Source: Candidatus Kuenenia stuttgartensis (GTDB taxonomy: Bacteria > Planctomycetota > Brocadiia > Brocadiales > Brocadiaceae). From it: a stretch of 32,000 nucleotides of DNA. The notes below the pieces were generated by a model, which saw nothing but the letters and a program-made list of their open reading frames with translations, made no database searches and was not told the origin of the DNA. Shown piece after piece: positions 27,198-30,813 of the stretch (its first letter is position 1; every line of letters starts with the position of its first letter). The translations under genes were made by a program, and so were the position numbers. The stretch spans positions 660,001-692,000 of the forward strand of contig NZ_LT934425.1 of the NCBI RefSeq assembly GCF_900232105.1, read 5' to 3'.

Positions 27198-27367
27198 CCC
27201 GCAGGCGGAGGGTCTTACACCATTGCCCTGAAGTTTGATGGGACGGCCCATGCATGGAGATATAATACTTATGGTGAATTGGGGACGGGACGACCACGCA
27301 GAGCGCTACACCGATACAGGCAAGCAATCTCCTCTTAAAACCGGCAATACCAACAGCAACCACTTGA
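27198..27367 (+). pseudogene. RCC1-like repeat gene fragment (frameshifted 3' end)
   Basis: AGGGSYTIALKFDGTAHAWRYNTYGELG, then after a 1-nt frame slip DGTTTQSATPIQASNL...*. This matches the RCC1 blade pattern (htlALksDGtvwaWGyNsyGqLGdGtt..r.tPvqv). No upstream continuation. The junction with the integrase remnant (27305-27365) is ambiguous. Confidence 0.4.
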
Positions 27368-27878
27368 CAATAAGCTGAGGAGAGCCTTCAATATAATTTA
27401 TTATTTGACGAACCTCTTCACGGGTCATGACTACTGGAATATTCGTCTTCTTCTGTGCACGTATAGCGTTAATCTCTTCTTTTAATGATACTTTTAAAGT
27501 AACTATTCAGCGTAATTTCTTTAACTACCATATATGACAAAAAAGGCCAAAATCACAGATATTATCCAGAAGTTGTATTGCTATATATAGACAAGAAGCG
27601 TAAATTAATGGGTTTTTGCCATATATTGTACTTTTACTCAAACACGCTGAATAGTTACCTTTTAAAACCTTCTTATACAAAAATACAAGTGCGTTCATAG
27701 CCTGGTTTTGGGTAGAAGGGGCAACGCAAGATTTCACGGCAAGGTGGGTCAAAAATTGTTCTATTTTTTCTTCACCGTCCATTAAATCCTCTTGACTGGT
27801 CATTCGGTGGTATTGAATATAGCCAAACAAATATGATTTTAGGAATTTGGCAATAAAATGGCTTTCTAAAAAACAGAT
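27309..27878 (-). pseudogene. Integron-integrase-like tyrosine recombinase, N-terminal remnant (truncated, MITE-disrupted)
   Basis: EEKIEQFLTHLAVKSCVAPSTQNQAMNALVFLYKKVLK | (MITE) | VSLKEEINAIRAQKKTNIPVVMTREEVRQIINYIEGSPQLIVK closely follows the IntI N-terminal pattern (FLtHLA....vsasTqNQAlsAllFLYreVL...l..i.rakr...lPvVlTreEv..ll..l.g...l...LLYGtG). The catalytic C-terminal two thirds are absent. Confidence 0.7.
27499..27658. mobile_element. 160-bp MITE inserted in the integrase gene
   Basis: Perfect 15-bp terminal inverted repeats GTAACTATTCAGCGT (27499-27513 and the reverse complement of 27644-27658). They are flanked by an 8-bp direct duplication CTTTTAAA (27491-27498 and 27659-27666). 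AT-rich non-coding interior. Removing the element plus one duplication restores a continuous integrase reading frame (..FLYKKVLKVSLKEEINAIRAQ..). Confidence 0.85.
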
Positions 27879-28082
27879 TTATTTGACTAAGCATACTATA
27901 CAAGCACGCCCCTTAATTCCCTCTTTATAGAGAGGACTGGGAGGTGTAAATTTTTCGAAAACCTTATTTGTTTGACTATATATCATTTGATTCAATCACA
28001 GTATGATCGTTCTGTATGGAGGGAATAATGCTTAAGCCTCATTATATCTTTTACTTTATTTGGCAACCCCCCCCTTTTTTGA

Positions 28083-28110
28083 TTGACATCCTTTTCTCCT
28101 ATTCTATACT
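28083..28110 (+). promoter_or_regulatory. Sigma-70-type promoter candidate directed at the cassette-like array
   Basis: TTGACA (28083-28088), 16-nt spacer, TATACT (28105-28110), 134 nt upstream of the ATG at 28244. Two inverted repeats lie in the putative leader: CCTGATAA/TTATCAGG (28164-28195) and ATTGATT/AATCAAT (28199-28217). Confidence 0.5.
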
Positions 28111-28243
28111 GTGTACGAAATAAAATTATAAGGTAATTTTTAAAATACAACACAATAATTTTACCTGATAATAGTACTTTTCCCTAGTTATCAGGGCAAT
28201 TGATTGTGATAATCAATGGTTATCCAATATTTGGAGTTACGAC

Positions 28244-29416
28244 ATGAATGCCAACGCTCAAACAGGAGACACTCAAGACGCTGCTCGCTTGCGTGCGCTT
28301 CTTTCTCAGCTCAATTGGCTAAACGCCCTCAACGACGAGCCCGCCAACGGGGTTTACGAGTATCAGTTCCATTCGGACGCTCACATCACTGGTGAATTCA
28401 CGTCGGGCTTAGGCCCCTATAGCTTTCTCAATACAGTGCCAATACCTGATACGCCGGGAATCGTAACTGCACCAATCATTCTACGTTTGGTTGATCATCT
28501 TCCTGAATATCGACCGGACATGTCAAAAAAGGACGAGACGTTTTATCACGGTGGGACGATGGTTGATGAACTTGCGGCACTATCATCACTGTGCATCGGT
28601 GCTCGAATTATGGCGGGCGGCGAATCGCGGCGATTTGAACCCGGCAAGGATCCAATGGGACGGCCCTGCGCATGGGATTACAAACCAGCGCCATTCCTTC
28701 GTGTACGACCTGGGCGCTATGTTCTTCCTTCCATCACTGGCACCCATTCACTCGATAATCTTAACATGCTGAAGTCAATTCCCAAGATATCACCGGAGAG
28801 GTATGTCAATCTCATCCGGTCCTGCATTGCATATCAGGATGCTCTTTGGGCTGCTGAATCGGAGCCTCATCTTGCTTGGTTGCTGTTCGTATCTGCTCTT
28901 GAAACTGCGGCAAACGACATCTATCTGTCGGATAGATCTCCAGCCGAACGCCTGAAAGATGCGAAGCCAGACGTGGCAACCATTCTTGATGAAGCGGGCG
29001 GCCATCAATTGGTCGAGAAGATTGCCAAACTGATTGCGCCTTCTTTGGGTGCCACAAAGAAATTTCTGGACTTCACCCTAAATTTCGGACCGAACGAGCC
29101 AACTGATCGGCCGGATCAAGAATGGCTGCGCGTGAAATGGTCGAAGACCAACCTCAAGCATACTCTCAGCAAAGTTTACAATTACCGATCTCGCTCACTG
29201 CACGGTGGTTTACCGTTCCCAGCTCCAATGTACGATCCACCTTTCTATTTCGATCGTAAGTCAAAGCCATCTGAGGTCCCACTAACTGGCCTCGCATCAC
29301 ATTCACGCGGCGGTACGTGGTTGCCTGAGGATATGCCAGTAAATCTACATTGTTTTCACTACATCACACGTGAGACCTTGATTAATTGGTGGCGTAATTT
29401 AGCGAATGAGAGATAA
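28244..29416 (+). CDS. Orphan 390-aa protein; C-terminal helical region with an Rx4H (HEPN-like) motif
   Basis: Long ORF with a GGAG SD 8 nt upstream, visibly more G+C-rich than its neighbours. The C-terminal half is helical (ERYVNLIRSCIAYQDALWAAE, LAWLLFVSALETAANDIY, LKHTLSKVYNYRSRSLHGG, NLHCFHYITRETLINWWRNL) with R315-x4-H320 encoded at 29186-29203. I recognise no family for the N-terminal 180 aa. The confidence value applies to the CDS call. The functional guess is far weaker. Confidence 0.8.
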   Translation: MNANAQTGDTQDAARLRALLSQLNWLNALNDEPANGVYEYQFHSDAHITGEFTSGLGPYSFLNTVPIPDTPGIVTAPIILRLVDHLPEYRPDMSKKDETFYHGGTMVDELAALSSLCIGARIMAGGESRRFEPGKDPMGRPCAWDYKPAPFLRVRPGRYVLPSITGTHSLDNLNMLKSIPKISPERYVNLIRSCIAYQDALWAAESEPHLAWLLFVSALETAANDIYLSDRSPAERLKDAKPDVATILDEAGGHQLVEKIAKLIAPSLGATKKFLDFTLNFGPNEPTDRPDQEWLRVKWSKTNLKHTLSKVYNYRSRSLHGGLPFPAPMYDPPFYFDRKSKPSEVPLTGLASHSRGGTWLPEDMPVNLHCFHYITRETLINWWRNLANER

Positions 29417-29422
29417 CAAAAT

Positions 29423-29457
29423 CTTCAACCGGACGCATAAAGCCGCGCCGGTTAAGG
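29423..29457 (+). other. attC-like or terminator-like hairpin 7 nt after the orphan ORF stop
   Basis: CTTCAACCGG-ACGC-ataaagcc-GCG-CCGGTTAAGG. The outer arms resemble R'' (RYYYAAC) and R' (GTTRRRY) and share TTCAACC...GGTTAA with the site at 30666-30722. At 35 bp it is shorter than canonical attC sites. Confidence 0.4.
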
Positions 29458-29920
29458 GCTTGGGTTTGGATAATAGGGTGAGATTAATCGAAATACCGTT
29501 GACGCACCGCAAACGAGTTACAGACCTACCGGAATTAACAGGTCAAGGACACACTTCCCAGTGCTTGTGTGTGTGCAGTAAGGAAACAAGTCGCTAACGT
29601 ACCTGCACGAAATCGTAGAACTGCCGGTATTCAGGTATCACCTAAGTTATCCAATGGTCAATTATGCAGAACGGGGGAATACTGTCATTTCGCCATATAC
29701 AACACCATGGCAGGTCAACTGCAAGGCAGGCTGATGAAAGGGCAGTACTGAGAAGTTGGAAAAAGCAAATGTCATTCTATAATGGCGTGAATAGGGTATG
29801 AAACATGACTTGACTCTAAAAGGTCGGGAATCAAACTTTTCGATTCTGAAAGGAATGCCTACTTCCAACAGGTGTTTCATTGCGGGAAAATTGAAAGAAT
29901 ATTCGGAGGCAGGAACGCAA

Positions 29921-30142
29921 ATGACGGGAATCAATCCTGGTGCTCTTCCCGATGATGCAATAACGTGGCATACCATAAATTGGGATGCTGCAAGGCGTCA
30001 CGTCAGAAGACTGCAAATGCGTATCGCAAAGGCTGTAAAGGAAGGAAGACCAGGCAAGGTGAAAGCTTTGCAATGGCTCCTTACCCACTCTTTCCACGCC
30101 AAGCTCCTGGCTGTTAAAAGAGTGACCTCAAAATCGAGGTAA
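29921..30142 (+). pseudogene. Group II intron reverse transcriptase/maturase, N-terminal 73-aa fragment
   Basis: [70 protein letters not shown] matches the conserved N-terminus of bacterial intron-encoded proteins (W..i.W......V..LQ.RI.kA...g...kvk.Lq.lLt.S...kllAv.rVt). GGAGG SD upstream. After a frame slip (..NRGKTV) the ORF joins directly to the extreme C-terminal/domain V region, so RT domains 1-7, X and En are deleted. Confidence 0.7.
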
Positions 30143-30184
30143 AACAGTCTGGTTGTCCTACAAGGGCAGCTTATTGAAATACTT

Positions 30185-30218
30185 GAGCTGTATGGTGGGA
30201 AACTATCACGTACAGTTC
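30185..30218 (+). ncRNA. Group II intron domain V
   Basis: GAGCTGTATGGTGG-GAAA-CTATCACGTACAGTTC is 34 nt, with the AGC catalytic triad, a 2-nt CG bulge on the 3' strand and a GAAA (GNRA) tetraloop. A U-A pair replaces the usual C-G at position 5/30 (compensatory change). Confidence 0.85.
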
Positions 30219-30273
30219 TTAGGAGGGTATCGGGCAGCAATGCCCGTGACCTATCCGATTCCGTTGAAAGGAA

Positions 30274-30317
30274 GTGAGGACGACCTCACCGCTCCAATAT
30301 ACATAGGGGACGACCTC
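30274..30317 (+). promoter_or_regulatory. Guanidine-II (mini-ykkC) riboswitch
   Basis: Two tandem hairpins, each with an ACGA loop closed by GG/CC: GTGAGG-ACGA-CCTCAC (30274-30289) and GGGG-ACGA-CCTC (30306-30317), separated by a 16-nt linker. They sit just upstream of the GAAGG SD and the ATG of an SMR/SugE gene, the classic genetic context of this riboswitch class. Confidence 0.8.
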
Positions 30318-30338
30318 AGCATTTGTGAAGGCAAATAT

Positions 30339-30659
30339 ATGGCGTGGATCATTCTTGTTATTGCGGGACTGTTTGAGACTGGCTGGGCGATCGGGTTGAA
30401 GTACACCGAGGGGTTCACCCGATTGTGGCCTACGGTCTGGACAGTCTTGGCGATGATTATCAGTCTTTGGTTACTGGGCATTGCCTTGAAGTCGCTTCCG
30501 ATTGGCACCGCTTACGCCATTTTGGTAGGAGTTGGAACCGTCGGAACCGTTGCGCTAGGCATCGTACTGTTTGGAGAATCTACGAATACTGCCCGGCTCA
30601 TCAGCATTGCTCTGATTATTGCCGGTATCGTCGGGCTTAAGCTTGCGACACCGGCCTAA
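30339..30659 (+). CDS. sugE: SMR-family guanidinium exporter (SugE/Gdx)
   Basis: 106 aa, four TM helices. [31 protein letters not shown]...[27 protein letters not shown] includes the essential membrane Glu in TM1 and the SugE-type KYTEGF motif. I reject the tracked 30153 start because its first 62 codons are intron domain V/VI plus the riboswitch. Confidence 0.92.
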
Positions 30660-30665
30660 CAACGT

Positions 30666-30722
30666 GTTCAACCCTGACGAGCAAAAACATCGCTTCTCTC
30701 TGCTTTTGCTAGTCGGTTAATA
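30666..30722 (+). other. attC-like recombination-site candidate (57 bp)
   Basis: R''-like GTTCAAC (30666-30672, a perfect RYYYAAC) and R'-like GTTAATA (30716-30722). Folds as TT-C-AACC-ct-GAC-g-AGCAAAA...TTTTGCT-a-GTC-GGTT-AA, with the unpaired bases on the 5' arm only, as in attC sites. Starts 7 nt after the sugE stop. Confidence 0.5.
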
Positions 30723-30813
30723 TGAACATTACCCCAAAAAACAATACTTCTATTATTCATGTGACGTGCTATACTAATAAAAACAATAACCTTGAATTTG
30801 AGGGAAGAACAGT

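Follow-up and report, generated by a model that had tools for sequence, protein, structure and literature searches.

A 5'-truncated, ORF-deleted CL1/IIB1 intron, most likely an inert relic, in a chromosomal integron of Candidatus Kuenenia stuttgartensis

Introduction

Does a group II intron that has kept a well-formed domain V, and that lies between an attC-like hairpin and a guanidine-II riboswitch, still act as a ribozyme, and does the transporter gene behind the riboswitch depend on it? The question arises in a stretch of 32,000 nucleotides (the window) from Candidatus Kuenenia stuttgartensis, whose genome is a single contig of 4.41 Mb (41% GC, 99.96% complete). A search of the literature on Kuenenia introns or guanidine found nothing relevant. 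An earlier note on this DNA had read the element as an ORF-deleted group II derivative associated with an attC site, which the present analysis bears out, and had further supposed that it was related to class C and could splice with the help of a maturase. The element is very probably what remains of an intron from a known CL1/IIB1 lineage that inserts into attC sites; truncated at its 5' end and deprived of most of its ORF, it is most likely inert and dead for splicing. The features on which this reading is based are collected in Table 1.

Table 1. Features of the intron element and of the integron around it, in window coordinates.
Feature	Coordinates	Strand	Remarks
Integron-integrase remnant, N-terminal part only	27357..27839	-	PF13495 E 1.3e-12 on 27525-27827; partial TIGR02249 matches
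Pc-like sigma70 promoter candidate facing the array	28083..28110	+	11/12 consensus; consensus match only
Cassette start / attI-type crossover (G/TT)	28219..28225	+	cassette start at 28219/28220
390-aa cassette ORF	28244..29416	+	no Pfam family
attC, left part	29411..29456	+	R'' 29411-29417, L'' 29423-29430, L' 29450-29456
Probable CL1/IIB1 intron relic, 5'-truncated and ORF-deleted	29448..30259	+	812 nt
9-nt microhomology junction	29448..29456	+	attC L' to intron nt 188-196
Domain I, 3' portion	29448..29676	+	subdomain Id and orphaned 3' strands of basal stems
EBS1 CUAACG	29594..29599	+	complementary to attC R' CGTTAG; stem broken at 29585 and 29589
Domain II-like stem	29680..29747	+	putative assignment, from position
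IEP remnant ORF, 73 aa	29921..30142	+	RVT_N E 1.9e-22
Domain V	30185..30218	+	RF00029; fold z = -5.1
Domain VI and intron 3' end (30259)	30222..30259	+	helix 30222-30256, GCAA loop, bulged branch A30253; z = -4.55
Guanidine-II riboswitch aptamer of the sugE cassette	30272..30318	+	RF01068 45.4 bits
sugE/gdx-type SMR transporter, 106 aa	30339..30659	+	PF00893 E 9.7e-28; SugE matches
attC closing the sugE cassette, R' degenerate	30654..30734	+	bottom-strand fold z = -2.85; loose ends at 30729 in two runs

The integron setting

The stretch around the element is a decayed chromosomal integron. Only part of an integrase gene is left beside the array, and an intact IntI (411 bits) is encoded at another site of the genome. 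The start of the first cassette is marked in several ways: paralogous leaders of the same genome stop matching the window at 28220-28221, loose contig ends occur there in four runs, and an identical cassette start comes after an attC in another array (L251), which also carries a close homologue of the 390-aa cassette ORF with a full attC. The leader itself (28061-28221) has at least six paralogues in the genome, 81-90% identical and most of them stopping at the same G/TT, which makes it a repeated attI/Pc-like platform.

The attC that follows the 390-aa ORF has lost its native spacer and R' box, both of which are intact in the sister species G002. Its bottom strand folds with -9.4 kcal/mol and an unpaired outer stem in the window, compared to -13.7 kcal/mol in G002. 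A GTT at 29464-29466, within the intron remnant and 7 nt past L', could serve as a makeshift R', and it is left unpaired in the bottom-strand fold. In the attC that closes the sugE cassette, the crossover G of R' (30728-30734) is replaced by A. Contigs of two runs place the next cassette after a different attC from that of the sugE cassette.

Assignment to the CL1/IIB1 lineage

Domains V and VI leave no doubt about group II ancestry: a catalytic triad and a bulge are found in the first, and a bulged A in the second. RF00029 matches 30183-30259 with 57.5 bits (gathering score 40), and domain V presents an AGC triad (30186-30188), a GAAA loop and a CG bulge, with U30189-A30214 in place of the consensus C-G pair. 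Covariance model and fold therefore confirm the canonical domain V with its compensatory U-A pair, and the helix with a GCAA loop behind it, as first described.

The class of the intron was derived from its encoded protein (IEP), its triad and its orientation. The T. elongatus maturase 6ME0, from an intron of the IIB1/CL1 type, is the only PDB match of the 73-aa IEP remnant (E 1.5e-22). A full-length relative matches the same structure with E 2e-91, and the N-terminal half of the IEP from the relative in G013 scores 309 bits on 6ME0, compared to 81 on LtrA and 74 on GsI-IIC. The window copy and the relatives examined all lie on the same strand as the cassettes. In contrast, IIC introns have a CGC triad (PMC7923331), and IIC-attC introns are inserted in the bottom strand of attC, opposite to the cassettes (PMC7923331, PMC4424553). 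The supposed class C or IIC-attC affinity is thus ruled out by the 6ME0-like IEP, the AGC triad and the same-strand orientation.

By similarity, the element is assigned to the attC-inserting CL1/IIB1 lineage, which is already known and has been little studied, and going by the published description it appears to be akin to UHB.I2. The latter is a CL1/IIB1 intron with the ends UUGCG..GU that lies just after an attC in cassette orientation (PMC7923331). Relatives of the window copy start with UUGCG, UUGUG or UCGCG directly inside attC R' and nearly all end in GU; the UUGCG...GU ends are found in complete sister copies, and the GU end in other strains at the window locus. A CL1 IEP without an En domain and the proximity of toxin-antitoxin and other cassettes are further points in common. 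UHB.I2 is of full length, whereas the window copy lacks the core of the ORF and the first 187 nt and has a derived AU end. The paper on UHB.I2 speculates on recognition of the attC hairpin, whereas the relatives of the window element show pairing of EBS1 with attC R'.

Three other systems invite comparison. Group IIC-attC introns (S.ma.I2, Ge.s.I1; PMC7923331, PMC4424553) also target attC in arrays; however, their insertion in the bottom strand at R'', their CGC triad and their class C IEP are all absent from the window element. The T. elongatus maturase (organism of 6ME0: PMC12084557) is the closest solved IEP structure, but it is longer (562 aa), active and not known to target attC. Bacterial group II introns that are ORF-less or fragmented (PMC4424553; H.ha.F1/F2 in PMC7923331) likewise include IEP remnants and 5'-truncated fragments that keep domains V and VI, and group II fragments are reported to be commoner than full-length introns (PMC4424553; PMC7923331). 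What sets the window case apart is that the site of its truncation is traceable, to a 9-nt repeat that also occurs in attC L'.

The IEP remnant consists of 70 N-terminal codons, one hybrid Lys codon and the last two codons with the native stop, all in frame, and about 1.27 kb of the RT and X domain is missing. The joining of an N-terminal remnant to the C-terminal end had been recognized correctly, but not the frame slip that was proposed along with it. Three nested ORF junctions occur among ORF-deleted copies, and all of them keep the frame to the native stop. Full-length relatives encode IEPs of about 495 aa (G013, with a nested intron removed) and 499 aa (L034), both of which carry RVT_N, RVT_1 and GIIM; a search of the two for an HNH/En domain gave no match. 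No En domain has therefore been lost from the window element, and of the RT, X and En domains that had been listed as gone only the first two were ever there to lose. The search for full-length copies of the same IEP that the earlier note recommended yielded, across the whole genome, no cognate maturase and only a 605-nt 3' fragment. Other RTs of the genome resemble the IEP of the lineage only weakly (about 35-50% in translated segments).

Loss of the 5' end at a repeated 9-mer

The matches of five relatives to the window all start at 29448. These relatives share 187 further nucleotides upstream, beginning right after attC R', which are absent from the window. The order of the parts in G002 is informative: the same leader and the 390-aa cassette with an intact attC are followed by another cassette and then by the intron. 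One 9-mer is found at two places in this array, in the L' arm of the attC and, 968 bp further on, at intron nt 188-196; the window agrees with the sequence to the left of the first copy and then with the sequence to the right of the second. The deletion would have measured 968 bp on a G002-like ancestor; with the intron placed in the window attC itself, the figure would be about 207 bp.

An identical junction is present in all 15 other loci of the window array aligned from other assemblies (G002 aside), and contigs of runs X8, X15, X16 and X17 bridge it. An assembly artefact was considered and rejected, since an independent DNA contig spans 28192-30225 without differences and the other assemblies agree. 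The exact pre-deletion allele, in which an undeleted intron would immediately precede sugE, was not recovered, and the missing 187-nt head has no counterpart elsewhere in the genome beyond matches of 73-74% within two further complete introns.

These data revise the earlier placement of the 5' end. The hairpin at 29423-29457 is present; however, the element does not begin just after it but overlaps it at 29448-29456. The two proposed starts, 29451 and 29571, are both internal positions of domain I, and the true 5' end is absent. A motif at 29473-29483 exists as noted, but it is an internal one (about nt 213-223 of the intron).

Competence for splicing and decay

A search with the Rfam families for domains I-IV, which had been suggested as a check, gave no match even at E<=5 and was uninformative on its own; domain I was therefore mapped by alignment to relatives. 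An RNAalifold consensus from seven complete domain I sequences comprises 106 pairs, 41 of them with compensatory changes. The window has lost 65 of these pairs, 36 in both strands and 29 in the 5' strand only, including the basal stems, which covary in the relatives. A full domain I can no longer fold, an outcome that the earlier note had itself named as fatal to its reading.

Group II splicing requires a 5' splice site and also the bases at the very start of the intron, which dock into the core. With the first 187 bases deleted, both the 5' splice site and IBS1 are gone, and the window intron almost certainly cannot splice. While complete relatives form five to six EBS1-IBS1 pairs in 16 of 16 cases, starts at 29451 and 29571 would each offer a single Watson-Crick pair with EBS1. 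Splicing with a maturase in trans, as had been envisaged, is opposed by the same loss and by the absence of any cognate IEP from the genome. No splice joints are seen in the contigs from three RNA runs, in a type of data where contigs drop rare forms and coverage may be DNA.

The relatives also indicate how the lineage finds its target. EBS1 lies at about intron nt 330 in the Kuenenia-family copies and at nt 391 in G013, which has extra hairpins. In the Kuenenia-family copies, the attC R' box forms the final six bases of the exon, and CUAACG pairs with it at five or six of six positions. Five more distant introns (L034, L069, L070, L078, L102) are inserted at another point of R', and their loop sequences have moved correspondingly; the loops were picked by eye at the homologous position and not blind. 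The comparison lends support to the idea that EBS1 pairs with the conserved R' box, in a register that would move with the insertion point.

The remnant has continued to change. With G013 as the outgroup, 19 derived differences were counted in the window and 9 in G002 over about 685 nt; some differences are adjacent, and the excess is only suggestive of decay. Domain I pairs are broken by three of the derived differences in the window. Two of these three fall in the EBS1 stem, and the EBS1 hairpin folds with -0.7 kcal/mol, compared to -6.3 to -9.8 kcal/mol in three relatives. The change at 30195 in domain V is a tolerated wobble. While the window intron ends in AU, the family end is GU; since other strains at this locus retain GU and the family alleles in domains V and VI, the AU end is a late, derived mutation. 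A window-type remnant is present in most strains seen, a point against the relic reading. In one strain (L158) everything after 29786 is lost, and the intron copy of G002 has lost domains V and VI. Another locus, L128 (G017:C1 about 1.54-1.55 Mb), has a pair of copies side by side that carry another internal deletion (1035 nt), one of the pair being 5'-truncated too, and an isolated fragment of domains V and VI, a case of repeated decay of the lineage in arrays.

The riboswitch-sugE cassette

Two ACGR-loop hairpins upstream of an SMR gene identify the riboswitch as guanidine-II. It does follow the intron closely, at 12 nt from the end at 30259 and not at the 20 nt or so that were first estimated. 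Guanidine-II switches translation on by way of the SD sequence (PMC5558903), and it is known from sugE genes of mobile elements (bioRxiv 10.1101/768630). As in these systems (PMC5558903; bioRxiv 10.1101/768630), the SMR gene in the window belongs to a mobile element and is preceded by twin hairpins with ACGA loops; what differs is the setting, a chromosomal integron cassette of an anammox bacterium, and the intron relic that lies before it.

An unrelated metagenome contig (L167) carries an almost identical aptamer with sugE, followed by an attC-like site, and has no intron. An exact search for the sugE leader in metagenomes returned no match. No terminator-like site was found on the + strand between 27800 and 30900, so that read-through transcripts would include the riboswitch whether spliced or not. 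The riboswitch is predicted to be a translational switch within its own cassette, and the riboswitch-sugE unit should need no splicing. This argues against the earlier proposal that splicing is required to join the promoter to the unit: the predicted switch acts on its own SD, and the cassette of L167 does without an intron.

Origin of the element and alternative explanations

The history of the element may be considered as a series of losses. The alignments show that about 1.27 kb of the ORF was deleted in frame to give a form of about 1 kb, which is complete at other Kuenenia attC sites. A deletion between the two 9-mers, of which the junction is visible and the mechanism presumed, would then have removed the right end of attC together with the first 187 nt of the intron. 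Substitutions accumulated in the remnant thereafter, some of them breaking stems. The outcome would be an element that neither splices nor moves. The 390-aa gene and the sugE unit have probably become a single cassette, and the relic would be read through as inert RNA ahead of a self-sufficient translational riboswitch.

The same end state could have been reached by another route, in which the integron integrase made the junction at the GTT within the 9-mer by recombining the attC L box with a secondary site in the intron. The 9-mer does contain GTT and is the L' box, and the intact IntI elsewhere in the genome could have supplied the activity. However, IntI normally cuts in the R box, and events at secondary sites need no run of nine identical bases, which has a chance of about 4e-6 at a given junction; such identity is typical of slippage deletions. 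An integrase origin is accordingly considered unlikely. Little probability is given to the notion that the relic, dead as a ribozyme, has been kept as a leader in which an internal promoter (29756-29783) transcribes the riboswitch and sugE. This promoter matches sigma70 at 10 of 12 positions, faces sugE with no + strand terminator-like site in between, and has a precedent in the internal promoters of IIC-attC introns (PMC3001079). Against it, six promoter-like sites are found where 5.1 are expected by chance, a better match (11/12) lies at 28083, and the level of variation among strains is about equal in the remnant and in the DNA downstream of it.

Domains V and VI and the branch A are still well formed, which runs counter to the relic reading and favors the model of the earlier note, a class C-like ORF-less intron starting at 29451 or 29571 that is spliced in trans by a maturase and controls riboswitch and sugE. 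The letters of EBS1 are also retained, and ORF-less bacterial introns that are helped in trans are known (PMC4424553). Nevertheless, this model is hardly credible: both starts lie inside a domain I that has lost most of its pairs, and neither is preceded by an IBS1; the class is CL1/IIB1 and no cognate IEP is available; and the riboswitch is translational (PMC5558903) and has an intron-less counterpart in L167.

With the relic reading retained, the single element matters little, being a dead fragment with no control of the riboswitch. Its value is that of a traceable case in which an attC-targeting IIB intron decays and takes the attC along. The relatives support a simple targeting rule, EBS1 with attC R', which was left open by the sole paper on the lineage (PMC7923331). 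A wider reading, for which the odds appear poor, is that the form of about 1 kb is a non-autonomous mobile intron among at least four Kuenenia attC sites, whose domain I 9-mer is identical to some L' arms, and that recurrent deletions of this kind destroy attC and lock cassettes, here a riboswitch-controlled guanidine exporter, in the chromosome.

Relatives within Kuenenia

Complete ORF-deleted copies of 984-1103 nt were found at other attC sites (L246, L247, L248) in Kuenenia assemblies and metagenomes; two more (L249, L250) look mosaic, are possible assembly chimeras and were not counted as independent. These complete copies of about 1 kb, and not the window copy, are of interest for splicing and mobility in trans. 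The genome itself holds the 3' 605 nt of an ORF-containing copy at G000:C1:3671265-3671869 (+), with the end of the X domain and domains V and VI and with its 5' side cut. The fragment precedes a GmrSD-type gene and has the same 3' exon as the ORF-deleted L248.

Complete ORF-less introns of the same lineage, 808-811 nt long, are present at G000:C1 about 2733416-2734223 (+) and 3078042-3078852 (-) and in L123 and L119, and also in L129 and L130. Their mutual identity is 98.7%, and they occupy four separate attC sites in two species of Kuenenia. No cognate full-length IEP for them was found in the genome of the window, and where mobility in trans is concerned they would be more promising than the window copy.

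About 11 near-identical RT copies were also noted in the genome, at G000:C1:49950, 58227, 2918254, 2943330, 3352463, 3757408 and 4043403 together with four broken ones; their open frame, about 335 aa long from stop to stop, ends before it would reach a typical maturase domain. A further 318-aa RT at G000:C1:96030-96644 (-), without a neighbouring domain V match, gives the impression of being CRISPR-associated. The copy of G013 (L127:3261-7455, -) is a twintron of 4195 nt: its IEP is split, directly behind the PQ of the PQGG motif, by another group II intron, which is frameshifted, and its domain I contains two similar hairpin insertions.
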